The notes under the pieces were generated by a model. The model ran no database searches. It worked only from the letters and a program-made list of their open reading frames with translations, and was not told where the DNA came from. The position numbers and the translations under genes are program-made. DNA of 64,000 bases from a virus, in the IMG/VR virus record IMGVR_UViG_3300025133_005699, positions 41,811 through 105,810 of that record; one strand, 5' to 3'. Below are positions 24,934-44,276 of this stretch, one piece after another; the stretch's first letter is position 1; the number at the start of each line of letters is the position of its first letter.

Positions 24934-24957
24934 AGCTTGAGCCTTTTGGTCCATTAT

Positions 24958-24990: not shown

Positions 24991-24996
24991 ATGCAC

Positions 24997-25032: not shown

Positions 25033-25053
25033 AGCCCTAACCGGAGCTTCCCT

Positions 25054-25383: not shown

Positions 25384-25385
25384 CT

Positions 25386-26159: not shown

Positions 26160-26160
26160 A

Positions 26161-26931
26161 TCAACAAATCTCCAATTCAATAAGTCTTTTGTTCTTAGAT
26201 GGGAATTTTTTCTCTACTTGCTGAAGAACAGGTTCAACAAGTTCCCACAACCTTCTACCAACCGAACGGGTGAACGTAGGGCATAGGTACTTTACTCTAA
26301 TTACACAATAGCCTCTTTTGACAAGAACGCCATTCTTAATTATATCGTGTTTTACATAACCCCGTAACATCTTTTCTCCAAAAACTGGCTCAAAGTGTTG
26401 GGGCCCATCTACCTCTATTATAGTCGAAAGCTCGGGCAAAAACAAGTCCATTTCATATTTTGTACCTTCTATTAGGTCTTTTTTATGAAGGATAACTTCC
26501 CTGCCTGATGCGTGAATTTTTTCATAAAGGAGTCTTTCGGGCTTTGAACCTTCCTTGATTGTTAGCAATAAAGCTTTAGCCGCCTTACTGCGTAACTCCT
26601 CCTTGTCGTGGTCAGACATGTTTTCCCATTGCTCTTTAGCAAGGGCAGATCTGCGTTTACGTTCTTTTTTTGGCAAGTCCGCCCACGCCTTTTCCAGACT
26701 GATACTAATTTTATCTTTAACCTTTTCGGTTCTAGTCTTTCCCTTTGTTGGGTGGGAATGTCTACCAGACTTTAAAGCCTCTTTTTGAGCCTCGCTTTTG
26801 CTGCGTAACTCAACACCATTAGATATTAACACTCTGCGTATTTTATTGGGATACGTGTCAAAGTTATCTGCAATGGCTTTCGTGCTTAGGTTATTTTTTG
26901 TATACATTTCTATTACTGTTTTTACGTCCAT
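26161..26931 (-). CDS. Putative free-standing homing endonuclease (HTH + NUMOD3-like + Vsr/DUF559 nuclease)
   Basis: N-terminal HTH (LSTKAIADNFDTYPNKIRRVL), NUMOD3-like HPTKGKTRTEKVKDKIS, and C-terminal EMDLFLP..IIEVDGPQH. Confidence 0.6.
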   Translation of the reverse strand: MDVKTVIEMYTKNNLSTKAIADNFDTYPNKIRRVLISNGVELRSKSEAQKEALKSGRHSHPTKGKTRTEKVKDKISISLEKAWADLPKKERKRRSALAKEQWENMSDHDKEELRSKAAKALLLTIKEGSKPERLLYEKIHASGREVILHKKDLIEGTKYEMDLFLPELSTIIEVDGPQHFEPVFGEKMLRGYVKHDIIKNGVLVKRGYCVIRVKYLCPTFTRSVGRRLWELVEPVLQQVEKKFPSKNKRLIELEIC

Positions 26932-27383
26932 AGTATTTTCTCCATTTTCTCCATATCCCAGTCATCAACGATGCCTGCGACTTTTTTGTTAGAGTAGTTT
27001 TCAAACAGCTCCTTGTGGGAGTAGCTTCTAGTTATTATATTAAGTTCCGGGTTTCTTACAACAGATGAAACATAGTTAAAGTCCATCGGCTTCCTTAACC
27101 ATTCTAAGTCCCATAGGTATAGGAATTTCTTGGCATTATTCTTTGTCTTTATCATCATGTTCGCACAATCAACACTTGTCGCAATCGCGACCCCATCAAA
27201 TTTAGCATAATAAGAAATATTCATACATGCGAAAAATGGTGTTATTGGAGCCGCACTTAATGTGCTATAAAAACACATAGGTGAACAGTCCGTATCCTCC
27301 TTCATTTTATTAAAAGCCTTTATAAGGTAATAAGACTCTTGTGAGGTTGACAGTGTTTCAATTATCGCCGCTATCTTTTTCAT
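26922..27383 (-). CDS. Hypothetical protein, glycosyltransferase-like Rossmann half-domain
   Basis: DGVAIATS...KKFLYLWDLEW resembles a GT-B N-terminal domain. Lies at the end of the glycan island. Confidence 0.4.
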   Translation of the reverse strand: MKKIAAIIETLSTSQESYYLIKAFNKMKEDTDCSPMCFYSTLSAAPITPFFACMNISYYAKFDGVAIATSVDCANMMIKTKNNAKKFLYLWDLEWLRKPMDFNYVSSVVRNPELNIITRSYSHKELFENYSNKKVAGIVDDWDMEKMEKILWT

Positions 27384-28141
27384 GCTAGTATTTTGTTCTT
27401 CCAGTAAGAGAATGACAATTTATTAAGTTTATATTCTTTGGTTTGCATGTCCTTGTATTCTTTTTTAAGTCTATCCTCTGTGACTTCATTCCAGTCCTCG
27501 ATAAACAACACAGGCAAACCTTCTAGGCACTCATGAGTTATGTATTTTTTAACGATAGGAATACACCCAAGATACAGGGCCTCCCATATTCTATGTGTAT
27601 CTATTCCGTTTCCTCTTGGGCACAGGCAAAAAGCATACTCTCTCAAGTGATTGACATATCTTTCAAAATTTTGTCCGTTTATAGATAGCCCATAGTCTGC
27701 AAAAACTGTTCCTAAGTGCAATTTGTGCAATAAATCGTGCCTCTCTTCATGTGTCGATGGGTTAAACTGGGTAAAAGCCCGCACCTTTCTATTGCCTAAA
27801 AGTGGGGCGTTTTTCATTATATTTCTTTTTTGAGGGTGCCAGTGGTTATTCTCTAATCCAATGGGCAGAGGGCGGACTCTAGGGTGCTTAAAACCGAGGT
27901 TTTGAGCATACCAAACAACTAAATTATCGGGCACTTTACACTCTTTTATCTCTACATCACTATTATGTGTTAACAGCTTAAACTGACTGTCTGGATGCCT
28001 GACAATAAAATCCAATACCTCTTCATGATTATCAGAGGCTGTGTACATTAAAGACACGCTTTTTTTTGGAATTTTTTCACCAAATTTAAAATCACATGTA
28101 TTTTTAAACTTTTCTCCGTCTACCTCATCTATAGGGTACAT
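27380..28141 (-). CDS. Exostosin-family (GT47-like) glycosyltransferase
   Basis: FCLCPRGNGIDTHRIWEALYLGCIPIV signature. Confidence 0.8.
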   Translation of the reverse strand: MYPIDEVDGEKFKNTCDFKFGEKIPKKSVSLMYTASDNHEEVLDFIVRHPDSQFKLLTHNSDVEIKECKVPDNLVVWYAQNLGFKHPRVRPLPIGLENNHWHPQKRNIMKNAPLLGNRKVRAFTQFNPSTHEERHDLLHKLHLGTVFADYGLSINGQNFERYVNHLREYAFCLCPRGNGIDTHRIWEALYLGCIPIVKKYITHECLEGLPVLFIEDWNEVTEDRLKKEYKDMQTKEYKLNKLSFSYWKNKILA

Positions 28142-28812
28142 CCGTACACTCCTGCTGTGCTTAACTGGCTACATAGATATGGATTGGTGTGCCAAACCTT
28201 TAGTTTGTTTTCTTTAAAATGATAGTTAAGTTCCCAATCAATAGAAGTACATATCGTGGTGAATGTACCGAGAACCTTCTCCGCCGCACTTCTTGTTAGG
28301 GCATAGGAAGATGTACAGTTAGTGGCGGGATGGTCAACGAGTAATAGGTTTCTATAAGATCCGCAAACCCTATCGGCAACAAGGTTGTGGTCAAAACCCC
28401 CACCAAAGAAGAGAGCATCATGAGGAACCCCTTCTGCCGTATGTAGAGAATCAATAATATCTTTTTTGGTTCCGTGAAAAACAACATCATCTTCCAAAAA
28501 GACTGCGTTGTCATAACCAGAAGATACCAAGTCTTCCATACATTTTATATGTTTTATACATAAAGATATATGTCCCATTGTCGGTCCTTTATATCCGTCG
28601 TAATCGACCTCCTCATACATACCTAAAGTTCTCTCTTTAAAGAGATCTAAATTAATATTGCAGTATGTGTCGATGACGGCTTCTGATAATTCATTTTTAT
28701 CATAGTCAGTATACCATGTGGCGTCAATTTCCATCTCCTCTAGAATAGGCTCTAGCCTAGCTCGCCGCTCAACGTTCTTTTTGTAGTGCATAACATAAAA
28801 TTTTGTCTTCAT
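28129..28812 (-). CDS. Glycosyltransferase family 25-like
   Basis: N-terminal ERR, SLCIKH..., AVFLEDD, TSSYALT...AEK, IDW motifs. Confidence 0.75.
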   Translation of the reverse strand: MKTKFYVMHYKKNVERRARLEPILEEMEIDATWYTDYDKNELSEAVIDTYCNINLDLFKERTLGMYEEVDYDGYKGPTMGHISLCIKHIKCMEDLVSSGYDNAVFLEDDVVFHGTKKDIIDSLHTAEGVPHDALFFGGGFDHNLVADRVCGSYRNLLLVDHPATNCTSSYALTRSAAEKVLGTFTTICTSIDWELNYHFKENKLKVWHTNPYLCSQLSTAGVYGCTL

Positions 28813-29970
28813 TTATACCATCCTGTTGATTATAGAACAAATTCTCTTAATGTCTTTATGTCTAAGGTCTTGGTGATTGGGAATATACATTCCGTATTTT
28901 TCCACAATGTTCGCATTGACCATCGGCTCTTCCCCATAGAGGTTGACCCATGCTGGCTGAAGACCCATGCTACCAGCTACAAGAGGGCGACACTCAATTT
29001 TTTTATTGTTTAACTCCCTGTAAACTTCTTGCTTGTTTTCCAAGATAAGAGGAAAACCCATGTTAGATATAACCTCTTGAGTTGTCTTCGGCTTTGGAAA
29101 CCAGATTTTTTGATTTAAGTTATTACAATAAGCGTAATAGTTTTCCTCGCGTGTTTTTGATATGTGATTTATTTTAGGTATCTGATTAAGACCTATGAAG
29201 GCCTGTAGATCGGTTGCCCTCAGGTTGAATCCTGCATAGTAGAATTTATACAGCGAATCAAAATCGTCCACCCCATATTTCTGTCTGTATTTTTCTTTAG
29301 AATCTTGACTTAAGTCTCTATCCCAGCCGTGACTTCTAATCATCTTTACAACGTCCGCAAAATCGCTATTATCGGTACAAACCATTCCCCCTTCAATAGT
29401 TGAAATGTGGTGGCCAAAGTAAAACGAAAACGAGCTAGCAAAGCCAAACGTGCCAAGCATCTTGCCGGACGTTCTAGATCCTAAGCTCTCGCAGGTATCC
29501 TCAATTACCAGTATATCGTTCTGGTCGCATATTTTGATAATCTCTTCTATAGAGGAGTCAAGACCCAATACATGTACGAGCATAACCGCTGCGGGCTGTT
29601 CTTTAATTATAATCTCTTTTAGATGATTAACATCTAGCCCCAAGTTTTTCATATTGCAGTCACAGAGGATCGGCTCTAAACCAAACTGTATAGCAGGAAA
29701 GATAGTTGTTGACCAAGAAACCTGTGGGACTACTATCTTGGAGTTTCTAAGAAGTCCCATCTGCTTGAGGGCGGACACTATTAAAAGATTTGCCGAAGAG
29801 CCAGAATTACAATATACGGAGTGTTCACATCCTAGATATTCGGAGAACTTTTCCTCGAACTCTAGCGTCTTAGCTCCTTTTGTTAATTGAGGCATTTTTC
29901 TTAGCCAGCCGATAAGAGAGTTTATATCCCTTTCGTCTATAATGTCTGAACATAGTTTAATTGGTTTCAT
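28813..29970 (-). CDS. DegT/DnrJ-family PLP enzyme, ColD-like GDP-4-keto-6-deoxymannose 3-dehydratase
   Basis: NSGSSANLL and IEDTCES motifs. SFYFGHHISTIEGG has His where aminotransferases have the Schiff-base Lys. RSHGW present, and no RfbH-type Fe-S Cys cluster. Confidence 0.75.
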   Translation of the reverse strand: MKPIKLCSDIIDERDINSLIGWLRKMPQLTKGAKTLEFEEKFSEYLGCEHSVYCNSGSSANLLIVSALKQMGLLRNSKIVVPQVSWSTTIFPAIQFGLEPILCDCNMKNLGLDVNHLKEIIIKEQPAAVMLVHVLGLDSSIEEIIKICDQNDILVIEDTCESLGSRTSGKMLGTFGFASSFSFYFGHHISTIEGGMVCTDNSDFADVVKMIRSHGWDRDLSQDSKEKYRQKYGVDDFDSLYKFYYAGFNLRATDLQAFIGLNQIPKINHISKTREENYYAYCNNLNQKIWFPKPKTTQEVISNMGFPLILENKQEVYRELNNKKIECRPLVAGSMGLQPAWVNLYGEEPMVNANIVEKYGMYIPNHQDLRHKDIKRICSIINRMV

Positions 29971-30893
29971 AGCTCTAGCACCGTTTTGAATTTCTCCAAT
30001 AGGAACTCTGGGTTAGCACAGTCGGGAATTTTGTTGTCTGGAAAACATGGCTGACTCTGAATCTCTTGGAACAGGTCAGGTTTATTATATATACCAAGAA
30101 CGGCCTCGTTTAGTTCATCTATATTGTTAAATCTTCTAGCATGAATGAAGGCGTCCTCATTAAATTCTTCACCCACATCTGGACAGCCCCAATATATTGG
30201 TATTACCCCTTTAGATAGTGGATGTATTAGTTTTTCAGTTATCCACCCGTCAGCCTCACCATTATCAAAACATAGGTTAAACTTAAAGTCATTAATATAC
30301 TCTAGCTTGTCTTTTTCATCTCCTCCTATAGAGGGCATATTTGTAAAGGCTCGACCTCTACTTTCTACCAAAAGGCCGTTCTCTACGCCGAACCCTATGA
30401 ACTCAGGGTACACTTCGGCTCTCAGCGCCATATCGTTATTTGTTAATACACAGCAGAACTTTTTCTTTTCCGTGTAGTCGGGAGGATTTAGCAACAACTC
30501 TGGTGAAACAAGAAAGGCTTGGTTCCTTCCTTGAACATATTGGTTTCCAAACCAGTCTACATACATAGCCCATAGTGGTATTCGCACGTTTCTATTATCG
30601 TCAAACTTGCAGGACGAAAAAGAGAAATCGCAGCTACTGTAGTCTGGGTCTCCCGTTCTATCAATTGACTCTACGAGCCAGTGGATAATCTTAGCTCGCC
30701 CCTTCATTCCATCCGTTAGGCTTGCTGCCGACGGAGACTGATGATCTGGCGGAGAGCTCTGGCAAACGATAATGTCTGGATTGTTTTCATCAACAATAAC
30801 ATTATATTCTAATGACAGAGTGTTGGTGATTATGTTGTCATGCTTAAAGAAGCCGCCCCACATGTTTTTAAAATCTATTTTTATCTGCTTCAT
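29967..30893 (-). CDS. GT10 alpha-1,3/4-fucosyltransferase-like
   Basis: FKFNLCFDN...GWITEKL...IPIYWG, the alpha-1,3-FucT motif. Confidence 0.8.
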   Translation of the reverse strand: MKQIKIDFKNMWGGFFKHDNIITNTLSLEYNVIVDENNPDIIVCQSSPPDHQSPSAASLTDGMKGRAKIIHWLVESIDRTGDPDYSSCDFSFSSCKFDDNRNVRIPLWAMYVDWFGNQYVQGRNQAFLVSPELLLNPPDYTEKKKFCCVLTNNDMALRAEVYPEFIGFGVENGLLVESRGRAFTNMPSIGGDEKDKLEYINDFKFNLCFDNGEADGWITEKLIHPLSKGVIPIYWGCPDVGEEFNEDAFIHARRFNNIDELNEAVLGIYNKPDLFQEIQSQPCFPDNKIPDCANPEFLLEKFKTVLEL

Positions 30894-31714
30894 TTTTCAA
30901 TCCTTTTAAACATATATTCCGCAAGCCTTTCTGGAGAACAAAAGTGTTCGTACCACAGCTTGGCGGCATTAGAATGGTATTCCAACACCTCTTCTTCTCT
31001 TCCTAAGATGAAGTCTACTGTTCTAGTCAGCTCTGCCCATCCAGCGTCCATTGGGAACGCCGGAGCTGCGTTATACATTGGGGTTTGTGGCATCCCCACA
31101 TTTATTACTATACACCCCGCGCACATAGCTTCAAAAAATCTAAAGCTTTCTTTGCTACCCGAGCCAATGGGTACCAACGCTATCTTGGTATCATTCATCA
31201 CATCGCAGTAGCTGTCTATAGCATCTCCGTTATTCCAGCCCTCATACCACAGGACATGACTATTGTAATTTGGTCGCTCGCCCTGTAATCTGTCTACAGC
31301 CTGTCTAAAGTTCACCCTAGTATAGGGATCAAACTGGCCCATCCAAGACCAGTCTTTTGTCCTTTTCGTTATTGGGATGTCTTGGTTGACAAACCCTTCG
31401 AGGCAACCTAAGGGCAATGGGCTAACTCTATTTATGTTCTTTACCGATGTCTGGTCTGTAGGTGTTCCCATAGGTGCGTACTGCTTGAATATGTGCACAT
31501 ACGAGTCATCCTGTGTTTGGTCAGGAACATTGTGTGCCTCATCTGATGTAGATATTAATATTTTTGGATACTTTGTTTCTTTCGGCATCTCATGATTCCA
31601 TACCTGCAAGATAAAAGAATAATCATTTTTCAGCTTCTTGGATAGTATCTCGACAGCCTCTTGATACACATAGCTGTCCGGATTTTGTTCAATAAGGTTA
31701 ATTATTTCAGACAT
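30890..31714 (-). CDS. Exostosin/GT47-like glycosyltransferase
   Basis: YCDVMNDTKIALVPIG...ESFRFFEAMCAGC motif. Confidence 0.65.
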   Translation of the reverse strand: MSEIINLIEQNPDSYVYQEAVEILSKKLKNDYSFILQVWNHEMPKETKYPKILISTSDEAHNVPDQTQDDSYVHIFKQYAPMGTPTDQTSVKNINRVSPLPLGCLEGFVNQDIPITKRTKDWSWMGQFDPYTRVNFRQAVDRLQGERPNYNSHVLWYEGWNNGDAIDSYCDVMNDTKIALVPIGSGSKESFRFFEAMCAGCIVINVGMPQTPMYNAAPAFPMDAGWAELTRTVDFILGREEEVLEYHSNAAKLWYEHFCSPERLAEYMFKRIEK

Positions 31715-32570
31715 CTATAAAACCCTCCAAGTTTTTACTATGTACATGTAGATTAAAAATTGGGTGTTTCATTCCATCTGACCCAATGGCATATGGCTTA
31801 TCTGTAAACTCTGCCCCTATTTTATTATTTCTAAGTAGCGCGCCTATCATATGTTTAGGGTCTGTAAACCCAGATTCATGCCCGTTATTTGTACCTCCTA
31901 AGTATTGGCCATAGGAGCCGGGATCAAACACGAAGTCCTTTTCTCCAATTTCAGGTACCGTCTTGAAGGCTTCAAACATCTCACACTTGTGAGCCACATG
32001 CAGGAGCGACATTTCGCTTACGTGATCAAATCCAAACTTGTTTATCAGTACCTGCTCCCCAAGAGCCAGCACCTCGTTTAAAAACTTGCATAGATAAACA
32101 ATGAGTACAGGCATTGGAACGTGGACAAAAGCAAACGTAACTTGATCGACTGACATTGGTGTAAGGCTTATCCTGTTAGACTGTGGAACGCCCTCAAGGT
32201 CGTGATATAAAAGAACATCATTTTCAAAGTGAAAGACATCGTACAGTCTATTCTTGTCTATATACTCACTGAGATAGTATATTCTTTCACAGGTTCTATG
32301 CCAGAACAGCTCAGGGCTAGGGTGGGTCGTGTTAGGCGTTCCGTGTCTTTTAAACCAGCACAGGTTGTTAAATTCTTTAAGGGTGGTGCCATCCTTTAGT
32401 GAGTCCTGAGGAACCCAGTTTACATCAATATCTTTAAAAAATGGCTGGTCATCTTTACATATAAAATCTATAGTAACGTCAGGATTTGTCTTGCGAGCTT
32501 GCGCTAGTGAAATTTGTGTATATGCCGGTAACTCTCCGCCATCTGAAATAAATGTATTAACTATTCTCAT
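31707..32570 (-). CDS. Putative GT-A fold glycosyltransferase
   Basis: FHFENDVLLY acidic motif, FDPGSYGQYLGG, NLHVHSK. Lies in the glycan island. Likely start MRIVN (32570). Confidence 0.5.
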   Translation of the reverse strand: MRIVNTFISDGGELPAYTQISLAQARKTNPDVTIDFICKDDQPFFKDIDVNWVPQDSLKDGTTLKEFNNLCWFKRHGTPNTTHPSPELFWHRTCERIYYLSEYIDKNRLYDVFHFENDVLLYHDLEGVPQSNRISLTPMSVDQVTFAFVHVPMPVLIVYLCKFLNEVLALGEQVLINKFGFDHVSEMSLLHVAHKCEMFEAFKTVPEIGEKDFVFDPGSYGQYLGGTNNGHESGFTDPKHMIGALLRNNKIGAEFTDKPYAIGSDGMKHPIFNLHVHSKNLEGFIDV

Positions 32571-33342
32571 TCTGAAATATACCCCTCTCTTTATCCCCTG
32601 AGTGTTCAAGCTTCCCGCCAATAGCCTCCACATACCAGCTGTGTTTTAATATCCATCGCATATCGTTCTCTTTTTCTGTTTTGTCGGTAGCTTTCAAATG
32701 CTGTATAGCTTTAGAAAATATTTTATACTCATTATTAGCATATTTAAACTGTAGACTGTTCTTTTCGATCTCTTCGTTGGCTATAAAAATCGCATCTACT
32801 CCCGACGCCGCCACTAAAGTGTACCCCATCCAGTTCAATAGATCTTTTGCTGCCGTTATGCTGCAACCATAGCGGCTGTCGCCAGACCAGACCCAATCTT
32901 TTCGGTGGATTTGTATTATAGTGCGAGGAGGAGGGATTTCCGGATTAAACTCTATGGATACCACTCTAGGTTTAAATTTTTCCAAATCCACGCTTCCAGC
33001 TACCCAGAAATCCTCTCCATCAATATCTATGGATAAAAAATCAAATACTCTCGGAACCTTGTACTTTTCTAGCAGCTCATTTATGTTTTCTGCGGAAACA
33101 AACTCATTTTTTAGATCATAAATAGCCTCTGGGTTTTCTGTGCCGTCCATTAGTAAGCCGTCAAACCCTAGAGTTTTTCTTAGGTAGATAGAGTTACCCC
33201 GTCCTGTATCTGTGCCATTTGATCCAAACTCAACAAAATACTTGTTGGTAACACCTATTAGTTCAAAAATTTTCTCCAAAATACCATCTTGGTAAAATTG
33301 TGAAAAAACACGCTTCTCAAAATTAAATAAATTTATTTCCAT
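32557..33342 (-). CDS. FkbM-like SAM-dependent methyltransferase
   Basis: FSQ..QDG, FVEFG, FDFLSIDIDGED, PRVVSIEFN motifs. Confidence 0.7.
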   Translation of the reverse strand: MEINLFNFEKRVFSQFYQDGILEKIFELIGVTNKYFVEFGSNGTDTGRGNSIYLRKTLGFDGLLMDGTENPEAIYDLKNEFVSAENINELLEKYKVPRVFDFLSIDIDGEDFWVAGSVDLEKFKPRVVSIEFNPEIPPPRTIIQIHRKDWVWSGDSRYGCSITAAKDLLNWMGYTLVAASGVDAIFIANEEIEKNSLQFKYANNEYKIFSKAIQHLKATDKTEKENDMRWILKHSWYVEAIGGKLEHSGDKERGIFQNENS

Positions 33343-33343
33343 G

Positions 33344-34066
33344 CTATGTCCAACTATGAATTGTAAAAAGGTCTACGTCTTCAGTTCTATTTTCGTCAAC
33401 TATTTGTTTTATCTCTTCTCCAGACCAAGGTTCGTTACTGTACCTTCCGTACATTTTGGTTTTAGTGAGCTGTGAGCCATAAAGATTCGGGTGGTTTTTT
33501 GTGATATAATTACCATAGGTCTCAAATTCTGACAGGAGGCAGTCATCAGACATAAGTGCATTAATAGCAAGAACCAAATGATCTTTGTTTGGTATCATTT
33601 CTGCGCATATATTTTTATCAAAAACCATGAAGTCGTTAATAAATGTATGGTCAACCTGCCTGCTTAACCCAAAATAAAGCTCCATAAATTTAAAGTATGG
33701 CTCATGGTGTTGATCTCTATCGCTAACAAAAAAGTTTGGTTTGCCGTCTTTAAATATATCAATAGGCCTGTTGAATATGAGGTCAGAATCTACACATAGA
33801 TAAAGGTCGTTTTCCGTAAAGTCTTGAAATAGTTTGACAAGCTGTTGGTATATCCAGTTAGACCGCCTGTATTTTATAGTGGCTTTATTTATTTGGACTG
33901 CATCTTCGTCCTTGATGCCCGTAGCAATACTTCCCCCCAGACCATCTGGAGTTATTACATATATGTTTTCTGGTGATGGGTTAAGATGCTCTAAGCATGA
34001 ATTCAAACAGAACTGTAGCTTTACATAATCTTTAGGGTGTGATGGTATTATAAGATCGTATTTCAT
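33344..34066 (-). CDS. GT-A-like protein (DUF6492-like)
   Basis: HPKD, WIYQQLVKL, YLCVDSD (DxD), SEFETYGNY motifs. Confidence 0.6.
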   Translation of the reverse strand: MKYDLIIPSHPKDYVKLQFCLNSCLEHLNPSPENIYVITPDGLGGSIATGIKDEDAVQINKATIKYRRSNWIYQQLVKLFQDFTENDLYLCVDSDLIFNRPIDIFKDGKPNFFVSDRDQHHEPYFKFMELYFGLSRQVDHTFINDFMVFDKNICAEMIPNKDHLVLAINALMSDDCLLSEFETYGNYITKNHPNLYGSQLTKTKMYGRYSNEPWSGEEIKQIVDENRTEDVDLFTIHSWT

Positions 34067-35911: not shown

Positions 35912-36950
35912 CTATATGCTCCTTTGCTTGATTCCAACCTTTTATAATGTCTTGGGCTTCTTGCTCGCAGCCAAAATAGCTTAATATTTGAGCAATTCGA
36001 TGAAAGTTCGTATGGTTATCCAAGATGAATTGCCTTCCTGTGGTTGCAATTTCTTTTCTCTCGTCATCATGAGATAGATAATAATCAATCTTCTCTTTAA
36101 AGTCGTCTGGCGAATCAGCAAAAACAACCCCGTTACCGTTGAAGATTTTACTTATCCCCTCTATATTATCAGAGATACAGAACCCTCCGGCACATAATAT
36201 CTTGAAGCACCTCTCATTAATATCAAACCCAAACTCGTGAGCGTGGGGCTCGCTTAGGTTTGGGCAAATTTTTGCAGAGACAAATAAGTCTTTGGCCTTT
36301 TCGTCTGCTAAATATCCGCAATATTGGTTGGCATTGGGCCAAGGTTGATTTCCAAATATTTTGACGTTATATTTATCAATGGGGTGTAGCAGGGGGGTAA
36401 GATACCTATCTATAATGATACCTTTATATGGCCAGTAACCACCAAGAAAGCCTATATCGCAAGAAAGACCTTCGTCAAACGTTGGAGTAACATACTCATG
36501 TACATTTGCACACATTATGAGTGATTTAGCATCAACACCTATCGATTTGAACTTTGAGTGTGTTTGGTCTACAGCGCACTGGTCGTAATGGATATGTACA
36601 AAGTCTGGCTTGCCCGTCTCATCTTTAAGTTTCTTTAGTATATCTTTTTCTTTCTCTGAGGAATACAGGACATTAAATCTAGGGTCTGCCTCAAAGTCTC
36701 CCCAATCTCCGGCTCTTAGCCCGACTTTTAAGTGAGGTCTTTCGTATATACATTTAATTAGTGGTGAGTCTAAGTTATAAGACTGCCCTAAGAAGATATC
36801 TGGCTCGAAAGTATCAAACGCATCAAAAGCTGAAACTTCTTTGCAATGCCAAAAAGAGGCCTCAATGCCACACTCATTGAAAGCCCTTAACCAAGACTGT
36901 CTCTGGAAGTAGTGGGCGTGGAGTCCGTCACTAGCAATTAAAATTTTCAT
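35904..36950 (-). CDS. CgeB-like GT-B glycosyltransferase
   Basis: DIGFLGG, INERCFKI..AGGFCISD, ERKEIA..GRQFILDNHT motifs. Confidence 0.7.
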   Translation of the reverse strand: MKILIASDGLHAHYFQRQSWLRAFNECGIEASFWHCKEVSAFDAFDTFEPDIFLGQSYNLDSPLIKCIYERPHLKVGLRAGDWGDFEADPRFNVLYSSEKEKDILKKLKDETGKPDFVHIHYDQCAVDQTHSKFKSIGVDAKSLIMCANVHEYVTPTFDEGLSCDIGFLGGYWPYKGIIIDRYLTPLLHPIDKYNVKIFGNQPWPNANQYCGYLADEKAKDLFVSAKICPNLSEPHAHEFGFDINERCFKILCAGGFCISDNIEGISKIFNGNGVVFADSPDDFKEKIDYYLSHDDERKEIATTGRQFILDNHTNFHRIAQILSYFGCEQEAQDIIKGWNQAKEHIDV

Positions 36951-37641
36951 TCTTTATATCCTTCATACAGTCTATTTCAACGATAGACATACTGTCTGGT
37001 TCGTAAACTTTTATAGTTCCACCTCTACTTATTATAGAGTTAATAACCTCAAAAGCCAACAGTGTTTTTGTTTCGTTGGCTGCTTTTGAGCAAATTTGCC
37101 GCAGTATAGCAAACTCTTTTCCTGTCAAGAAAGCGATCTGGCACCACTTGGTGTCTAGCCCGTAAGATAATATGCTCGCTTTGTTATTAACAACGGTAAC
37201 TCCAACCTCTTTCTCTCTCATCTTATTCTTATTGTCTACGACAATGAATGACTTAGAAAAGTCTGCTGAGTTGATGGTTTTAATATCAAAATATAAATCC
37301 CCATGAAAGAACAAAACACTATTACTGGTTATATTGTTTACTATTAGCCTTAGAGTTTCAAAAGGCCCAGTCGTATCATGTAATTGGTTTTCTACAAACC
37401 TGACTTCGCCGGGGAATTTTTTAAGTATTCTATTTGCTTCTACCCCTATACCAACCACAATCTCGGGCTCGTGAAAAATCGAATTCACTGTGTCTAGCTG
37501 GTGTTGCAATAAAAACTTTGGCCCAACCTTAAGTAAGGCTCTAGGCTCATGGGACTTTATCCTGCTACCTGTTCCGGCAGATAAAATGCCGACGCTGGTA
37601 TCAAGAGGTTCCTTCTTTATTTTTTGTGTAAATCTACTCAT
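36931..37641 (-). CDS. Nucleotidyltransferase (LicC/sugar-phosphate NTP transferase family)
   Basis: LSAGTGSRI...PRALL, FHGDLYF, EIDC motifs. Confidence 0.7.
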   Translation of the reverse strand: MSRFTQKIKKEPLDTSVGILSAGTGSRIKSHEPRALLKVGPKFLLQHQLDTVNSIFHEPEIVVGIGVEANRILKKFPGEVRFVENQLHDTTGPFETLRLIVNNITSNSVLFFHGDLYFDIKTINSADFSKSFIVVDNKNKMREKEVGVTVVNNKASILSYGLDTKWCQIAFLTGKEFAILRQICSKAANETKTLLAFEVINSIISRGGTIKVYEPDSMSIVEIDCMKDIKNENFNC

Positions 37642-38437
37642 CTCTAGAGTTTATTTTCTCCATATTGTCTGCAAATATACTTTGCGTCATTCTCATAGAT
37701 TGATTCTGTCCTGTTTCTCTAACAAAAGATAAGGGTTGTGGGACATGAACCATCATGCAAACTCTTGAGAGCCTAAGCCACAAGTCGTAATCTTCTGTGC
37801 ATCCAATAAAGCCCTGAGATGCTGGGCCATGTAAATTACTATCATAAAATTCCTTTTTTTCTGGTAGCAGTATTGCCTGTAAAAATCTTTTCTTTATAAC
37901 CCCAGCACTATGAACTATACACTGTTCGTGTAGTCCCCTTAGAGAGTATGGGTGTTTATACTCATATTTTTTATAATCATTACCATTATAAGTTTTATGT
38001 ATAATATAGTCAGAATATGTAACCCCAAAATCCTCGTGCTCCATCAGCTTTTCAACCTGTATAGATATTTTATTGTGAGCATACATATCATCGGCATCTA
38101 ATATAGCAAAAACATCAGCCCATTCCCAAGCCTCCCAGATGGCCACGTTTCTTGCCGTGCTGGCTCCAGAATTATTAATCCTAAAAGCTGTCAGTCCATC
38201 CATCTCTCTATACTCAATTGGGCCATCGTAGTAAGGGGTATGCAAGACCTTTTTTGACATTGAGCTTGCGGTAAATGGAGATATCTTTTCCCAAGAATCG
38301 TCAGAAGAGCCGTCGTCTACAACAAAAACTCTTAGCTCTCCTTTGTAGTCTTGATCTAAAGCGCTATGTATAGCCTCCAAAACAAATTCTCCATAATTGT
38401 AGTTGCTTATTATGACAGCGACCTTAGGCAGTACCAT
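37634..38437 (-). CDS. Glycosyltransferase family 2
   Basis: VIISNYNYG, VVDDGSSD, ARN, LDADD, EDYDLWLR. Likely start MVLPK (38437). Confidence 0.9.
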   Translation of the reverse strand: MVLPKVAVIISNYNYGEFVLEAIHSALDQDYKGELRVFVVDDGSSDDSWEKISPFTASSMSKKVLHTPYYDGPIEYREMDGLTAFRINNSGASTARNVAIWEAWEWADVFAILDADDMYAHNKISIQVEKLMEHEDFGVTYSDYIIHKTYNGNDYKKYEYKHPYSLRGLHEQCIVHSAGVIKKRFLQAILLPEKKEFYDSNLHGPASQGFIGCTEDYDLWLRLSRVCMMVHVPQPLSFVRETGQNQSMRMTQSIFADNMEKINSRDE

Positions 38438-39233
38438 TAATGAACTCCTCCCACTCACAAATACAGTCTGGGTTCTCAGAAACCATAAGCTCAACCTTTT
38501 CAATAAAGTTGATTCTAACCTTTTCTTTAGTCTTCGGGTCTACCACATCTTTATCCCCGTGGAGGAATTTATATATAGCAGTCTGAAAAATCATACCGTT
38601 CATTTTTTTGTATGGTTTAATCAGAGCGAGCCGCTTCATGTCGATATTCATTCTATTGTCTATTTTTTCAAACAGGTTTTCTGGAACATCTTCACCAGAA
38701 GTTGTCACAAAAATCCAACCATTCTTAGCGTGTCTAAACGCTTCACCTATCATAAACAAATCCATCTGACCGACGAGACTCAATACAATATGGTATTCTG
38801 TTTCTTCAAAGTCAAACTCGCTGGCAAGCAGTGCTTGTATCTCCTCATTATATTCAACATTAGCGTTGATAACCACTATGTAGCGAGGAGTACCTCTTGT
38901 TTGGCTCTTTATCTGCGCAACCGTATGACGAAGATCTATCATGGCGTTTTTAGATCTAGTGTCTAAAAATACAAAAATTCCAATACGAGGAAAAACCTCT
39001 CTAAGGACCGTTTGTTTTAAATTCTTCTTCTCTTCTTTAGACAAAACCTTCTTCCATTCTTTGGGTCTATAGGTATTACAAAATCTACTAAAAAGAAAAT
39101 CAAACTTACCGTCTTCAGTTTTTCCAGTTTTTTCTGGGTTCAGCAGTTCTATCCTATTTAACTTGCACCCGGTTTGCTTTTTATTTCTATATTCAGCAAA
39201 TACGCAACCCTTGCAGTGTGTTTCAATTTGCAT
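38424..39233 (-). CDS. Hypothetical protein (N-terminal Cys cluster, possible degenerate GT-A domain)
   Basis: CKGC..C..C N-terminus. Overlap-coupled within the glycan island. Confidence 0.5.
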   Translation of the reverse strand: MQIETHCKGCVFAEYRNKKQTGCKLNRIELLNPEKTGKTEDGKFDFLFSRFCNTYRPKEWKKVLSKEEKKNLKQTVLREVFPRIGIFVFLDTRSKNAMIDLRHTVAQIKSQTRGTPRYIVVINANVEYNEEIQALLASEFDFEETEYHIVLSLVGQMDLFMIGEAFRHAKNGWIFVTTSGEDVPENLFEKIDNRMNIDMKRLALIKPYKKMNGMIFQTAIYKFLHGDKDVVDPKTKEKVRINFIEKVELMVSENPDCICEWEEFINGTA

Positions 39234-39660
39234 TATTGTTTCTCCTTGCTGTTATAACTACTTGCATTGTTTCATTATTGATGAACTGTTCTTCTATCGT
39301 TAGCCCCATTTGCTTCAGGCTTTCTCCTAATGTTTCTGCATTCAGGACGGAGGCTATCGAGCTAGATGTATCAAACAATAAGTCATTTATATCCTGAACA
39401 TCCATTCCCATCTTGTTGTAATGGTGACATATGATATCTATATCTTTTTCATAGATAATTATTCTGCCGTTAATCCTAAGCTTTGACACAATCTTACTCA
39501 ATACAGATCCAAGCTCAGAACGTGGAAAAGAGGTGAGCATTGAGTCTATGATGATTTCTGTGGACTCTGAATCATCAACAAAAAGATCAATTGATGATAT
39601 ATCGCTCACCCATATATGATTTGACTCAGAGGGTTTTCTATTAGACAATATAATTTTCAT
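39223..39660 (-). CDS. Hypothetical protein, methyltransferase-like fragment
   Basis: LSKIVSKLRINGRIII resembles a class I MTase strand. No clear SAM-binding motif I. Confidence 0.4.
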   Translation of the reverse strand: MKIILSNRKPSESNHIWVSDISSIDLFVDDSESTEIIIDSMLTSFPRSELGSVLSKIVSKLRINGRIIIYEKDIDIICHHYNKMGMDVQDINDLLFDTSSSIASVLNAETLGESLKQMGLTIEEQFINNETMQVVITARRNNNAN

Positions 39661-39662
39661 GT

Positions 39663-40685
39663 TTATTTCCTGTAGTTTTGTATAACGTTAAAAAACTGTT
39701 TGTTCCAACCCTCAACGAATCGGTCTAGACTGAACTCATTTACAATTGTAGTCTTTGCATTGTCTCCCAACCTTCTGGCTTCGTCAGGATTGTTAAGGAG
39801 ATACTCGCAATGCTCTCTAAGCTCTTCTGGAGTGTTAGCGAGCAGTCCGTTCTCTTCGTGTTGTACAATTTCTGGTATCATACAGTTGTTGGTACTAACG
39901 ATAGCGCACCCGCAAGCCATAGCCTCCATCAATACTGTTGGTACGGGAGAGTGGATAGACGTGTTCAAAAATATAGAAGATTTCTTGTACCCTTCTCTTA
40001 GGGCCTCAAGACTAGGAGCAGGCTCAGATAATCCGGGACTGCTGCCAAACACCCTTATAGGTAGCTGGTCAGGAGAGTTGAACCTAACTGTTTGCTGCCA
40101 TAGGTTCCAGCCACAACACCAATCTCTATTTGGCCAATCGTTGACTACGGATATACAAACATTTTCGCGGTCATATAAATCGCCACCGCCCCAAAAATCA
40201 GTATCTATCCCGTGTTCAATAAAAGAGGTAGTTTTGGATAAATTTTTCCCCCACTCTTCCATATTGTATCGAGATATAAAGCTGTCATGATCGACTTCAA
40301 TAGCATTAAAACCAGCCACCTGAGAATGAACATCAAATCGAATATCCGGTAAAACATGCGTATGTCGCAAGATAGGTATATTGAAAAGCTGTTGAATTTG
40401 TTTGGCAGTCATGATTCTCTCACAGCTCGTATGACAAAGAATTAAATCAAAGTTAATATGCCAAGGCACGATATCAATCTCTTGATAGTTTGCGGGAATT
40501 AAGCCATAGTCTGTATTCCATGTTTTTCCATGATTCATAGAATAGAAATTATGTCCTGTCTTACATAGACCCTGCTCGTATCTTTCATGTGTGCAAAACG
40601 TCAATATATTAAGAGTGTCTCCTTCGCTCAGGGCAGACCTTCTCATTATAGACCTTATAGACTGCTGGCTAGCGGTACTACTCAT
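39663..40685 (-). CDS. Glycosyltransferase family 4
   Basis: HGID, FLNTS..SPVPTVLMEAMACGCAIVST, ENGLL motifs. Confidence 0.85.
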   Translation of the reverse strand: MSSTASQQSIRSIMRRSALSEGDTLNILTFCTHERYEQGLCKTGHNFYSMNHGKTWNTDYGLIPANYQEIDIVPWHINFDLILCHTSCERIMTAKQIQQLFNIPILRHTHVLPDIRFDVHSQVAGFNAIEVDHDSFISRYNMEEWGKNLSKTTSFIEHGIDTDFWGGGDLYDRENVCISVVNDWPNRDWCCGWNLWQQTVRFNSPDQLPIRVFGSSPGLSEPAPSLEALREGYKKSSIFLNTSIHSPVPTVLMEAMACGCAIVSTNNCMIPEIVQHEENGLLANTPEELREHCEYLLNNPDEARRLGDNAKTTIVNEFSLDRFVEGWNKQFFNVIQNYRK

Positions 40686-41784
40686 ATAGCAACTCCTTTA
40701 ACTTTTTACCAATACATTTTATATCGTATTCTCCAGCCTTAGCTATGGAATCATCTTTTTTGGTATTGTATTCTTTTGGGTTGTTCTTATAGGTCTCATA
40801 AGCCACCCTCATTGTAGAGCACAGCGACTCCAAGTCTGGCTCCATCCATCTGGTAAGCGATGTATACACACTATCCATCGAATCTGTTGCCATGTAACAT
40901 GGGGCCGGAGACGATTGGACTTTCCACCCCACACAGAAATCATCCATACCAGTATTAGCCGTATGTATAACAGGTATGCCCATAGCCATAGACTCTAGTG
41001 CCGGTATACACCAAGCCTCTCCAAAACTAGGCATAACAAAACAATCGCACTTACCCATCAGTGAGTGTAAGTGTCTACTTTCCAGATGCCCCGTTATGGT
41101 GATTTCTTTTCTGTAGTTCTTTCTTATTTTAAGGGATCGCCTTACATTGTCTGAAAGGGTCTCGAAATATTTGAGCGTTTCATCGTGACTGTATCCCGGC
41201 TTACTTAGCTTTAAGAATAGGTTGACAGGCTCTGAGGGGTGAAACTCTGTGTGAAAAGCTCGTAACAAAGTTTCGATATTTTTTCTCTTAATCATCTCTC
41301 CGACAAAGCAGAAGTTAAAACATCCTTTAAACTCCCCTACGCTTGCACAGTCTTCTATATTTTGGTAATCTTCTATAGGTAAGCACAGAGGTGCTAACTT
41401 AACAGGAGTCGTTACTCCGCTTTTCTGAGAGGCCGTTATCATCTGGTTGTTAGGAACCCACGCTTCGTCAAGCAGGTTTATGTACTTGTGCCACATGGTT
41501 TCTGAAAAGGTCGCCGTTTCGGTATAGAAGATGCCTATGTTTTTAAAGCTCGAATTATAAGAGTACAACGGCGGAAGTGTGTGCTGAATGCAAACATCTA
41601 CACCTTGTTCGCTCTGGCTTTCTAGCTCCGCAATTCTTTGGTTGCCAGTATTGTGTGAATCGTTAAAGGTAATAGCTCTAGGCACAACATTTACTCCAGC
41701 AGAATCTAAAGCTAATATATTGTTGGCGCAAGCATTTCCCCAACCCGTCCTATCGTTATAGTTTCCTATATAGAGAACTTTCAT
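40678..41784 (-). CDS. Glycosyltransferase family 4
   Basis: RKNIETLLRAF, DCFVMPSFGEAWCIPALESMAMGIPVI motifs. Confidence 0.85.
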   Translation of the reverse strand: MKVLYIGNYNDRTGWGNACANNILALDSAGVNVVPRAITFNDSHNTGNQRIAELESQSEQGVDVCIQHTLPPLYSYNSSFKNIGIFYTETATFSETMWHKYINLLDEAWVPNNQMITASQKSGVTTPVKLAPLCLPIEDYQNIEDCASVGEFKGCFNFCFVGEMIKRKNIETLLRAFHTEFHPSEPVNLFLKLSKPGYSHDETLKYFETLSDNVRRSLKIRKNYRKEITITGHLESRHLHSLMGKCDCFVMPSFGEAWCIPALESMAMGIPVIHTANTGMDDFCVGWKVQSSPAPCYMATDSMDSVYTSLTRWMEPDLESLCSTMRVAYETYKNNPKEYNTKKDDSIAKAGEYDIKCIGKKLKELLYE

Positions 41785-43433
41785 CGCTGCCCTCCCTGAA
41801 TTTTATTAGCCCTAATTTTTTCCCACTCATTATGCATCTCTCTCATTTTAGCCATGTGGGTATATGCCAAATTGACATCAAACTTACCCCAATTTCTTAT
41901 ATTGTTGTTAAGGTGTGATTCATTGAAATAGAAATCAACATTTGTACTACTAGCGGTACACTTATACGTAATGTCCCTTAGTGTTCTTTTCCACATATGG
42001 TTTCCAACCCAGTCTGGTCTTCGTAGAACATGATTAAAGAGGAAATCTACCTGCTCTTTGACGCTAAGGTTTGGCGGGATTTCAGTAGCAGATGGTAGTA
42101 TTCTTGGGGCAGAAAACCATGTCTCGGCGTGATTTCTAACTGGCGTCTTATCAAAATAATCCGCCCATTTGCTCGCAGTATCATCCCAGTTATATCGAGA
42201 AAGCGTGCGCTGTCTCATGTTGTAGCCCGCCTGTTTACGTTTCTCATCGCTGGTATTGTAGAGGTCAGTAATATGCTGTAGCGCTACGCTGTTGTCTGGG
42301 ATAGCTCTATTGCAGCCAGTCTCACATTCCATTTGAAGGTAGCTTACCGGAACCTTGAGAGCCCCAATATTGTCTGCGACAGACTGCATAGCGGAATAGT
42401 CAACGGTAATGACGGGAACTCCCGACTGAGACGCTTCTAATTGGGGCATCCCGAACCCCTCACTATTTGCATATTGTATATATACATCAAACAGGCTATA
42501 TATTTGCGCAAGCTCATCTCTTTCTATTTTATTGTTTATACCAACGAGCTCTCTTGTGAAATTTGCACATTGATAGCAATGGTTGATAACGTCATTAAAA
42601 AATGAGGTATTAATATGGCCGCACTTCTTACATCTATACGTAAATAAAACCCTATTGGTCAGCCCATACTCTTGAAGAAGCTGAGGTATTTCCCACCCAA
42701 TATCAGGATAAGATGTGTGGCAGTAAAGATATGCGTTTGGGGCATCGTTAGAGTCTAGAAACTCCCTGAATGTTTTGAATAAGTCTGGAAATAATTTTCT
42801 TCGCTGGTTCCTCATTACCGTACCAAGAATAAACGAGTCTTCAGCTAGCCCAAAATTTAATTTATGCGAGATCTTGTCATGAACAATATCAAACTCCTGA
42901 CTGGCACAGGGAGATGCTATATCTATAAAGTTCAAATCTTGACATTGCCCCAAGAGAACATCTTTGCCGAACTCGGAGTACGCAAACACGGCGTCTGCAC
43001 TAGCGAAGGTATCCATCCACTGGTTATTCTGAGGGGCGGCGTCTACTGTCGGCATTATACACCAATGAAAGAAGTCTCGAAATGGCGTTCTTTGTTGGAA
43101 TTCAAACATCCACCAGTCCCGTATGTCCACAACAAAGTCCGGCATAAAGTCTAACAAGACATGATTGAAGGTATACTCACCAAATTCATATGATGGCTGT
43201 GATTTATACTCATGCCATTCTGGGCTATCTTTTACGGGCTGGTTTGGAAATATAGTCCAGTTGCAGTTCTTGGCCTCTTTATTTGCTCTTGCTTGGTCTA
43301 CATAACAGGCAAGCTCGGCAACCTCAAATCTAGGGTCTACACTCAGGCGAGAAAGAACCTCTTTTGTGTATACAGAATATCCTGTAGGCAAGAAGTGTCC
43401 CTCTGAGCAAAAAAGTATTTTTTTACGTCTCAT
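41781..43433 (-). CDS. Glycosyltransferase family 4 (550 aa, with CxxC insert)
   Basis: TGY N-terminal motif, RNQRRK, EGFGMPQLEASQSGVPVI, and CKKC/CYQC insert. Confidence 0.85.
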   Translation of the reverse strand: MRRKKILFCSEGHFLPTGYSVYTKEVLSRLSVDPRFEVAELACYVDQARANKEAKNCNWTIFPNQPVKDSPEWHEYKSQPSYEFGEYTFNHVLLDFMPDFVVDIRDWWMFEFQQRTPFRDFFHWCIMPTVDAAPQNNQWMDTFASADAVFAYSEFGKDVLLGQCQDLNFIDIASPCASQEFDIVHDKISHKLNFGLAEDSFILGTVMRNQRRKLFPDLFKTFREFLDSNDAPNAYLYCHTSYPDIGWEIPQLLQEYGLTNRVLFTYRCKKCGHINTSFFNDVINHCYQCANFTRELVGINNKIERDELAQIYSLFDVYIQYANSEGFGMPQLEASQSGVPVITVDYSAMQSVADNIGALKVPVSYLQMECETGCNRAIPDNSVALQHITDLYNTSDEKRKQAGYNMRQRTLSRYNWDDTASKWADYFDKTPVRNHAETWFSAPRILPSATEIPPNLSVKEQVDFLFNHVLRRPDWVGNHMWKRTLRDITYKCTASSTNVDFYFNESHLNNNIRNWGKFDVNLAYTHMAKMREMHNEWEKIRANKIQGGQR

Positions 43434-44230: not shown

Positions 44231-44276
44231 TTACAATCTCCAATAATGTATGCATATAGAAGATTATAGCCTATTG

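Follow-up and report, generated by a model that had tools for sequence, protein, structure and literature searches.

Large clusters of sugar genes in lytic marine phages are already known, and their function has been unexplained since 2005, when the 24 'LPS' (lipopolysaccharide) genes carried in two clusters by the Prochlorococcus myovirus P-SSM2 were hypothesised to have a host-surface role (Sullivan et al., 2005, PMC1079782). The same question, namely which acceptor such a cluster serves, is raised by a glycosylation island in the IMG/VR virus record IMGVR_UViG_3300025133_005699. The stretch of DNA that was analysed (hereafter the window; 64,000 nucleotides, positions 41,811 to 105,810 of the record) is the right-hand 64 kb of this one viral contig of 105,810 bp, and the island lies at window positions 26922-43433; window and genome coordinates are kept apart here. 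A prediction made earlier from the letters of the window had described an 18-gene phage glycosylation island lacking export or polymerase genes, and proposed an all-cytoplasmic pathway that builds a complex glycan directly on phage proteins or DNA.

We find that the observation behind this prediction was right and that the proposal drawn from it, which is partly supported, goes beyond the evidence. Nineteen minus-strand open reading frames (ORFs) tile the island, one more than first counted, and the tight coupling stands: neighbouring genes overlap by 1-26 nt or are separated by a gap of 0-2 nt, while two apparent overlaps of about 80 nt are artefacts of upstream TTG/ATG start calls. The island makes up about one sixth of the known genome, and sugar-related genes altogether roughly one fifth of the contig. 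What is new is the number of glycosyltransferases, large for a phage (11-13 in the island and 12-14 on the contig), the universality of the island in its phage family, and an organisation of core plus cassette in which alleles have recently been swapped; further novelties are the two GT-A lineages that lack a Pfam family and the probable planctomycete host.

Glycosyltransferases, core and cassette

Eleven proteins of the island are supported as glycosyltransferases: three GT4, a GT2, a CgeB-like protein, a GT10, a GT25, a GT47, a weak GT47-like protein and two GT-A proteins recognised by fold only. The DUF6492 protein and a 308-aa ORF are two further candidates. Pfam confirms the GT4 trio, GT2, CgeB-like, GT10 and GT25 assignments made earlier, together with the nucleotide-sugar and methyltransferase-like genes. 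Where two GT47 proteins had been named, one is above the cut-offs and the other is sub-threshold; the alignment of the two spans the catalytic part (24% identity, 116 aa). Likewise, about three additional GT-A-like proteins had been proposed, and two of these hold by predicted fold, with the DUF6492 protein a candidate only.

The 295- and 269-aa proteins were folded with alignments of phage orthologues. The AlphaFold2 (AF2) model of the 295-aa protein (pLDDT 83, pTM 0.86) matches SpsA, TarP and GnT-I in Foldseek at E 4e-8, and that of the 269-aa protein (pLDDT 72) matches PcManGT, RmlT, SpsA and TarP at E 4e-6 to 1e-4; the Atlas neighbours of the latter are viral GT2 clusters (0.90-0.91), and its residues C7, C10, C23 and C52 are invariant. 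On these models, both proteins have a GT-A fold and represent two lineages without a Pfam family. Profile searches of PDB sequences with the 269-aa, 295-aa, 308-aa and DUF6492 families gave no match. The DUF6492 protein has a conserved DSD motif and aligns to the 295-aa GT-A protein in hhalign at E 0.031, with shallow profiles. The island is a source of new soluble glycosyltransferases.

The lead GT4 protein (550 aa), the best conserved of the glycosyltransferases, is found in 28 loci at 48-98%. It carries an invariant CxxC-N14-CxxC motif (Cys268/271/286/289), a zinc-ribbon-like insertion within its GT-B fold, and at the C-terminus it has a conserved extension, about 120 aa long; the insertion and the extension are candidate acceptor-recognition parts. 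For the CgeB-like protein there are 641 metagenome homologues, of which the best 120 are at least 59% identical and come from contigs of up to 159 kb. On our own reading of its consensus, the 145-aa protein may be a methyltransferase-like remnant.

The island was compared with eight long related contigs and the presence of each gene was counted over nine; in what follows G000 is the contig under study and G001 a relative that is 94% complete. As the island is syntenic in nine long related contigs and partly covered in 28 loci, the gene cluster is not a chance grouping. In every relative the core keeps the same order, i.e., GT4 (550 aa), GT4, GT4, the 145-aa protein, GT-A (269 aa), GT2, nucleotidyltransferase, CgeB-like protein, Fcl-like protein and GT-A (295 aa). 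After this core of 10 genes, seven of them for glycosyltransferases, come a variable block of 3-13 genes and the conserved genes for the 153-, 256- and 264-aa proteins. A distant member (G010:C7, 40-44% identity) keeps the GT4 trio, the nucleotidyltransferase, the Fcl-like gene and the flank. The 256- and 264-aa flank genes are present in 9/9 relatives, and tblastn matched the 114-aa gene in G001-G003 and G010:C7; the three are probably not glycan genes, and the HNH-like 256-aa protein might take part in cassette exchange.

The family content of the relatives' proteins was taken from pooled searches, of which the 25 commonest families are listed. The variable blocks of the relatives hold methyltransferases including FkbM, GMD-like dehydratases, DegT enzymes, formyltransferases, sulfotransferases, a PIG-L deacetylase, a cupin, and GT2, GT47, GT32 and GT7-type transferases. 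Among the families listed the cassettes contain tailoring enzymes and glycosyltransferases only, and no membrane family. Cassette content changes from clade to clade, and it can differ even where two phages share 97% identity. Moreover, in G005 (L140:9336-10220) the 295-aa GT-A protein is an allele with 50% identity, whereas most neighbouring genes are 94-100% identical (the adjacent ones 94% and 99%), and this is a recent swap of a single-gene allele at the boundary of core and cassette. A core with a recombining outer cassette between conserved flanks argues that the product is exposed to outside recognition.

Like P-SSM2, the phage is a lytic marine phage with many epimerase, transferase and synthase genes, no export genes, phosphate-related auxiliary genes and a cluster of hypothetical function; no integrase was noticed among the proteins scanned. 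P-SSM2 is a T4-like myovirus, whereas the phage described here is a siphophage with a giant tape measure protein, a split DnaE and a host from another putative phylum. The P-SSM2 cluster is absent from the sister phage P-SSM4 (PMC1079782), whereas the present one is universal in its family. A universal cluster with a fixed core and a swappable cassette makes an unusually clean case for studying the function of sugar clusters in marine phages.

Sugar supply and membrane components

The gene gmd lies outside the island. In all relatives it occupies the interval from the late-operon sigma gene to the terminase gene, co-oriented with the head genes, and on the present contig a Methyltransf_24 gene lies in this interval too; the score of gmd, 394 bits, is just below the 415-bit cut-off. 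Within the island, the Fcl-like protein matches the NCBIfam GDP-L-fucose synthase at 2.8e-83 (280 bits, under the curated cut-off). The best PDB match of the ColD-type enzyme is Escherichia coli ColD/WbdK (1.9e-59) and its best NCBIfam match RfbH, and it retains an HH motif at the position aligned with an aminotransferase lysine, which we take to be the Schiff-base lysine. The GDP-L-colitose set, made up of Gmd, a ColD-type dehydratase with His for this lysine and a ColC/Fcl-type reductase, therefore appears complete. As gmd, the Fcl-like reductase, the nucleotidyltransferase and the ColD-type 3-dehydratase are all phage-encoded, the phage is predicted to make GDP-fucose and a GDP-3,6-dideoxyhexose, for example colitose.

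In G001 the remaining 62 kb include genes for ribonucleotide reductase, four DUF1501 proteins, phosphomannomutase, mannose-6-phosphate isomerase/GMP, one more GT4 and a PAP2 protein. Since phosphomannomutase and mannose-6-phosphate isomerase/GMP are added there, the family can make GDP-mannose, GDP-fucose and derivatives from central metabolites, and by this gene content the region missing from the contig under study likely holds more sugar-supply genes. At 100-145 kb and 1-17 kb of G001 we also noted a class I ribonucleotide reductase, a phosphomannomutase of eukaryotic type, Hsp20, an M19 dipeptidase and a cytidylyltransferase. On the contig itself there is a second small glycan locus at the left end, as well as an insertion of 11 kb that separates the capsid gene from the connector/tail genes (Table 1); some genes of the insertion have homologues in the accessory region of G001.

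Transmembrane segments were predicted with a simple Kyte-Doolittle hydropathy scan that covered all ORFs of the contig and of four long relatives. No credible ORF of at least 250 aa with at least four hydrophobic segments was found in the contig, G001-G003 or G010:C7 apart from the tape measure protein, the other positives being out-of-frame ORFs inside tape measure genes; the scan agrees with the earlier remark that the island encodes no multi-transmembrane protein, and the GT2 protein has no C-terminal transmembrane segments. The priming families Bac_transf (PF02397) and Glycos_transf_4 (PF00953) are absent from G000-G003, and PF00953 also from G006, while control genomes were positive. Wzx (PF01943), Wzy_C (PF04932) and GtrA (PF04138) are absent from the contig and from relatives up to 94% complete, again with positive control genomes, and the small ORFs with 4-5 transmembrane segments in relatives have no GtrA or Wzx family match. 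A search of the wider genome for flippase or polymerase genes thus came back empty in the contig, three long relatives and the 152.7-kb distant relative. The phage-encoded pathway, as read from these proteins, is entirely soluble with no membrane step, which bears out the all-cytoplasmic character claimed for it, including in the 94%-complete relative. The island forms the main part of this self-contained assembly line. The PAP2 protein of relatives was considered as an undecaprenyl-diphosphate or lipid A phosphatase and set aside, having fewer than two hydrophobic segments in the scan; the distance of its gene from the DUF1501 genes is about 1 kb in G002 and about 17 kb in G001, and we read it as part of a phosphate-scavenging set rather than of the glycan pathway.

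As the defining parts of an O-antigen, capsule, gtr or T-even DNA-glucosylation system were looked for and not found, the island is none of these. The gtrABC modules of Shigella and Salmonella phages also encode a glycan change on the phage, but consist of three genes, two or three of them for integral membrane proteins, in temperate phages. Soluble glycosyltransferases with their own nucleotide-sugar supply, and lineage-specific sets of glycogenes, the marks of virus-autonomous glycosylation, are both present. As the phage supplies its own GDP-sugars and lacks a membrane step, the question of the acceptor narrows to a few testable options. However, the step from a lack of membrane components to a glycan on phage proteins or DNA does not follow, as LOS (lipooligosaccharide)-type extension needs no such components and the host could supply the machinery. 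Lipid A-core assembly uses soluble or peripheral glycosyltransferases and the general MsbA/Lpt route of the host, with no dedicated exporter, and for a glycan linked to undecaprenyl phosphate, priming, flipping and ligation could all come from the host. The composition of the island, with glycosyltransferases of the soluble or peripheral kind only, agrees with an LOS-type system, in which export is left to general host machinery.

The acceptor of the glycan

We tentatively favour virion surface proteins, glycosylated in the cytoplasm, as the acceptor. Specifically, 1) the phage supplies its own activated sugars through Gmd, the Fcl-like protein, the nucleotidyltransferase and the ColD-type enzyme; 2) the seven conserved soluble glycosyltransferases would build a core oligosaccharide; 3) the swappable cassette, here with GT10, GT25, GT47-type enzymes and the FkbM methyltransferase, would finish the glycan in a lineage-specific manner; 4) the acceptor would be one or more of the capsid, decoration protein, head fibre and tail tube; and, 5) cytoplasmic glycosylation would proceed stepwise, either ahead of assembly or in its course, which is the manner of chloroviruses, mimiviruses and mycobacteriophages. 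The outer part, being variable, would give the particle a 'serotype' and alter its interaction with the host, particle surfaces or grazers. The conserved core of seven glycosyltransferases argues, weakly on its own, for de novo synthesis on a conserved acceptor and not for trimming of a host glycan. Weak pointers to a virion target are the position of gmd among the late head genes in every relative, the tailoring genes (pyruvyl transferase, PRTase-like and radical SAM) beside the head-fibre gene, and the nearest Atlas sequence clusters of the lead GT4 protein, which are at least 88% viral. Its best PDB matches by profile are GtfA/Gtf1 (2.6e-5), which we take to be a cytoplasmic protein O-glycosyltransferase, and chlorovirus B736L (1.3e-4), and these nearest solved relatives point weakly to a protein target.

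The likeness to the glycosylation clusters of giant viruses, to which the original prediction drew attention, is real at the level of gene content. Chlorovirus PBCV-1 has capsid N-glycans, and Mimivirus has clade-specific glycogene clusters of up to 21 genes (PMC9614988); like these viruses, the phage encodes a GDP-mannose dehydratase and a fucose pathway, its glycosyltransferases are soluble, and it shares with them sugar methyltransferases, predicted rare sugars of bacterial type and clusters that are clade-specific and similar in size. No route resembling the endoplasmic reticulum/Golgi and no lipid-carrier route is encoded. The sequence kinship is limited to shared glycosyltransferase folds and the weak B736L match, and, whereas chemical work has placed the giant-virus glycans on capsid or fibril proteins and the hosts of those viruses are eukaryotes, the present phage is known from metagenomic contigs. 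Among tailed phages, mycobacteriophages also have their own glycosyltransferases, which glycosylate capsid and tail-tube subunits in the cytoplasm (Freeman et al., 2023, as summarised in PMC12619734); these phages reportedly have 1-4 glycosyltransferase genes and C-terminal acceptor tails, whereas here there are 11-13 glycosyltransferases with sugar pathways and no recognisable acceptor tail.

Several observations weigh against a virion target. The leftward operon to which the island belongs is the replication operon and not the structural one, and the putative late-promoter octamer TGTGTATW, with 8 matches in the window against 4.6 expected, is not enriched and has 0 matches ahead of the island, which makes it uninformative on timing. 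A search of the conserved virion proteins for tails or repeats rich in Ser/Thr brought up no convincing example, and the capsid protein has 1 Ser/Thr in its last 35 residues; the putative tail tube ends in a stretch rich in S/T/G/N, and the 1399-aa protein of the fibre region, with 25% Ser+Thr, is not conserved in the family. The insertion with fibre and tailoring genes is absent from most relatives, while the core island is universal. Furthermore, the matches to GtfA and B736L span only the generic nucleotide-sugar-binding region at E 1e-4 to 1e-5, GT25, GT10/GT11 and RfaG-like GT4 are classic LOS/LPS families, and a glycan on the particles of this uncultured phage is a prediction from genes. 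It is possible, if somewhat speculative, that the particles of this widespread phage family bear a complex glycan made up of more than 10 sugars, fucose or a dideoxyhexose among them, made cytoplasmically by the 11-13 glycosyltransferases and consisting of a conserved core and a recombining, O-antigen-like 'serotype' part. If so, a bacteriophage would have autonomous glycosylation in the style of giant viruses, and diversifying selection would act on its serotypes; glycosylated particles would bring phage 'serotypes' and sugar-mediated sticking to marine particles and algal surfaces, the habitat of planctomycetes, into ocean virus ecology.

A serious though doubtful alternative is that the phage remodels the host envelope, its glycosyltransferases extending the host lipid A-core (LOS-type) or a host-primed undecaprenyl-diphosphate sugar, with the host's MsbA/Lpt, Wzx or ABC transporter plus ligase bringing the product to the surface. 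This would exclude other phages or stop progeny from re-adsorbing to debris, and the cassette would vary as host strains and competing phages vary. GT25, GT10, GT11, RfaG-like GT4, GT2, ColD/colitose and the perosamine-type formyltransferases of relatives are all LPS O-antigen or LOS families, LOS-type loci do without a flippase or polymerase of their own, and Wzy_C/O-antigen-ligase-type genes occur in all 31 sampled genomes of the putative host family (1-12 each). The island resembles bacterial loci such as the LOS loci of Campylobacter and Neisseria and the colitose locus of E. coli O55 in its hypervariable centre between conserved flanks, its GT25, GT2 and GT4 enzymes, its GDP-colitose genes and its methyl, formyl and sulfo tailoring; it differs from them in being viral and lacking Wzx, Wzy, an ABC transporter, WaaL and a priming enzyme. 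Its position directly downstream of the replication genes, and co-directional with them, suggests early or middle expression, the lack of an acceptor motif on conserved virion proteins fits a target elsewhere, and slow growth of planctomycetes could, through a long latent period, leave time for a surface change. The same idea has been put forward for the P-SSM2 genes (PMC1079782). However, known surface-converting phages use one to three genes including membrane parts (GtrA/B/C), with GtrA absent here, and a core of seven glycosyltransferases with a complete sugar supply far exceeds what the modification of an existing glycan requires. The nearest relatives of the lead GT4 protein are viral and not bacterial, gmd in the late operon would be late for an exclusion function, and GT9 heptosyltransferases, GT30 Kdo-transferases and lipid A-core enzymes were not noticed among the results of the Pfam family scan, no dedicated search for them having been made. 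Should the host envelope prove to be the target, this would be a case of surface glycolipid being rewritten, in a host that grows slowly, by a lytic phage.

It is also conceivable, but unlikely, that the acceptor is another one in the cytoplasm, be it a non-virion phage protein, host proteins or an intracellular glycoconjugate, either free or bound to lipid, that might serve as a decoy for a glycan-sensing defence or as a storage or osmotic compound. Sequence does not identify the acceptor, which leaves room for this, as does the Pfam 'GT4-conflict' family, which matches the 368-aa GT4 weakly and marks some of the viral clusters nearest to the 550-aa GT4. Against it, the hypervariable cassette fits a product open to outside recognition, and we know of no pathway of more than 10 glycosyltransferases with lineage-specific outer decoration that serves an intracellular target. 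Decoration of modified phage bases, with evasion of restriction as in the glucosylation of 5-hydroxymethylcytosine in T-even phages, is highly improbable. The island adjoins replisome genes, a deoxynucleoside monophosphate (dNMP) kinase gene is near, and phages are known whose glycosyltransferases assemble di- or tri-saccharides on DNA (Pyle et al., 2024, as cited in PMC12619734). However, the search for base-hydroxymethylase genes that had been suggested as a check found neither the ThyA-family hydroxymethylase (PF00303) nor the C5 methylase (PF00145) in the contig and in relatives up to 94% complete, with positive controls; TET/JBP (PF12851) was not found either, a weak negative as its control was also silent. 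A DNA target is unlikely on these absences, and 11-13 glycosyltransferases with GDP-deoxyhexose pathways and O-methyl, sulfo and formyl tailoring are far beyond any known DNA glycan.

Genome organisation, phage family and putative host

The contig has a GC content of 0.42, no terminal repeat and a CheckV completeness of 65%. It is organised in two arms, the rightward one comprising the left part of the contig and the first 25 kb of the window, and the leftward one, in which all genes point leftward, running from window position 63999 down to 25054; they converge at a pair of strong terminators. In the scanned stretch, 24800-44700, the leftward array shows no strong internal terminator, so the island is probably co-transcribed with the replication genes. 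A scan for the sigma-70 consensus gave matches at background level only. The sigma-70 gene upstream of the island is present in the 66-98% clade and absent from the clade at about 50%.

Table 1. Genes and other features of the island and its contig (window positions, unless marked as genome positions)
Feature	Position	Strand	Evidence and remarks
Sigma-70 region-2 protein, 159 aa	43423-43902	-	Pfam Sigma70_r2 3.1e-10; gene overlaps island start by 11 nt
GT4 glycosyltransferase, 550 aa	41781-43433	-	Pfam Glycos_transf_1; first core gene
GT4 glycosyltransferase, 368 aa	40678-41784	-	Pfam Glycos_transf_1 and Glyco_trans_1_4; core; 9/9 relatives
GT4 glycosyltransferase, 340 aa	39663-40685	-	Pfam Glycos_transf_1 1.7e-18; core; 9/9 relatives
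Conserved 145-aa protein	39223-39660	-	No Pfam or PHROG match; core; 8/9 relatives
269-aa protein, Cys-rich N-terminal domain and predicted GT-A-fold domain	38424-39233	-	AF2 model and Foldseek; core
GT2 glycosyltransferase, 289 aa	37634-38503	-	Pfam Glycos_transf_2 2.7e-17; core
Sugar-phosphate nucleotidylyltransferase-like, 236 aa	36931-37641	-	Pfam NTP_transf_3 1.9e-10; weak GlmU N-terminal-domain matches; core
CgeB-like GT-B glycosyltransferase, 348 aa	35904-36950	-	Pfam Glyco_trans_1_2 1.1e-27; core
Fcl/ColC-like GDP-4-keto-6-deoxymannose epimerase/reductase, 328 aa	34925-35911	-	Pfam Epimerase/GDP_Man_Dehyd-like; core
Predicted GT-A-fold glycosyltransferase, 295 aa, invariant TDD motif	34063-34950	-	AF2 and Foldseek; core, at cassette boundary; hot spot of allele swaps
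DUF6492 protein, 240 aa, candidate GT-A	33344-34066	-	Pfam DUF6492 4.4e-6; variable cassette
FkbM-type methyltransferase, 261 aa	32557-33342	-	Pfam Methyltransf_21 1.1e-5; cassette; only in G000 and G005
308-aa protein, candidate glycosyltransferase	31707-32633	-	No Pfam, PHROG or PDB match; variable cassette; 5/9 relatives
Weak GT47/RXYLT1-like protein, 274 aa	30890-31714	-	Sub-threshold Pfam, E 0.002-0.003; cassette
GT10 fucosyltransferase-like, 308 aa	29967-30893	-	Pfam Glyco_transf_10 2.7e-13 and FucT_N; cassette
ColD-type pyridoxamine-phosphate (PMP)-dependent sugar 3-dehydratase (DegT fold), 385 aa	28813-29970	-	PDB 2gms match; cassette
GT25 glycosyltransferase, 227 aa	28129-28812	-	Pfam Glyco_transf_25 5e-6, above cut-off; cassette
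GT47/RXYLT1-like glycosyltransferase, 253 aa	27380-28141	-	Exostosin_GT47 3e-9, RXYLT1_C 1.1e-9, both above cut-offs; cassette
Conserved 153-aa protein	26922-27383	-	9/9 relatives at 44-51%; no family match; first gene of distal flank
Distal flank: 256-aa HNH/homing-endonuclease-like, 264-aa and 114-aa proteins	25054-26931	-	Last genes of leftward operon
256-aa protein with HNH/homing-endonuclease-like C-terminal part	26161-26931	-	phrog_559 1.7e-10; weak RAP domain match
Strong terminator pair	24964-25032		One strong terminator at 25003-25032
Leftward arm: three DUF1501, PhoH, RecA, DnaB, primase, dNMP kinase, PD-(D/E)XK nuclease, split DnaE, single-stranded DNA-binding protein, second sigma factor, island	63999-25054		All genes leftward
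Three tandem DUF1501 genes	60164-63999		Last one cut by contig end
PhoH	58778-59488		Near DUF1501 genes
dNMP kinase	49815-50642
Split DnaE, PHP/polymerase half	46739-48316
DEDDh exonuclease	45820-46509		Between DnaE halves, with a 76-aa ORF
Split DnaE, fingers/HhH/OB half	44277-45845
Rightward arm: sigma factor, gmd, ClpP, large terminase, 334-aa major head protein, 3,555-aa tape measure protein, giant tail proteins
Decoration protein	genome 15104-15568
Capsid protein	genome 15598-16602
11-kb insertion: Gp80-type head-fibre, 1399-aa protein, PRTase-like, polysaccharide pyruvyl transferase, radical SAM/SPASM	genome 16720-27896		Absent from G001 and G003
Putative tail tube	genome 31244-32272
Second glycan locus: GT11 fucosyltransferase-like, class I methyltransferase, weak PhyH-like 2-oxoglutarate dioxygenase, 218-aa DegT-fold fragment	genome 612-4148	-	Not conserved in G001-G003

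The phage is a member of an abundant family of uncultured marine siphophages with genomes of about 150 kb. It has no close cultured relative, the best terminase identity in a phage collection being 26%, whereas in IMG/VR there are over 590 related terminases, which are 71-98% identical and come from contigs of up to 145 kb. The distant member G010:C7 is GenBank VFHP01000007.1, a contig of 152,655 bp binned in a metagenome-assembled genome (MAG) of a 'SAR202 cluster bacterium'. It contains the replisome, the island, the tape measure protein and DUF1501 genes, and as its terminase/capsid region is missing its genome must exceed 152 kb.

The host is probably a marine member of the Pirellulaceae (Planctomycetota), as judged from the auxiliary genes. 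DUF1501 proteins belong to the alkaline-phosphatase/sulfatase superfamily, and their genes are candidate auxiliary metabolic genes. When the DUF1501 gene at window 60164-61378 was searched against a set of species-representative genomes, 77 of the 80 best loci belonged to Pirellulaceae and other Planctomycetota, with proteins 65-76% identical to its product; of the rest, two loci come from MAGs without a phylum in the title, and the top match (78%) is the mis-binned phage contig. A literature search on DUF1501 phages, or on planctomycete phages with such islands, returned nothing relevant, and the contig may give a first genomic picture of abundant marine Pirellulaceae phages. Among the phages the DUF1501 genes are 72-85% conserved. 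The split of DnaE, with the exonuclease gene and the small ORF between its halves, is kept in all relatives.

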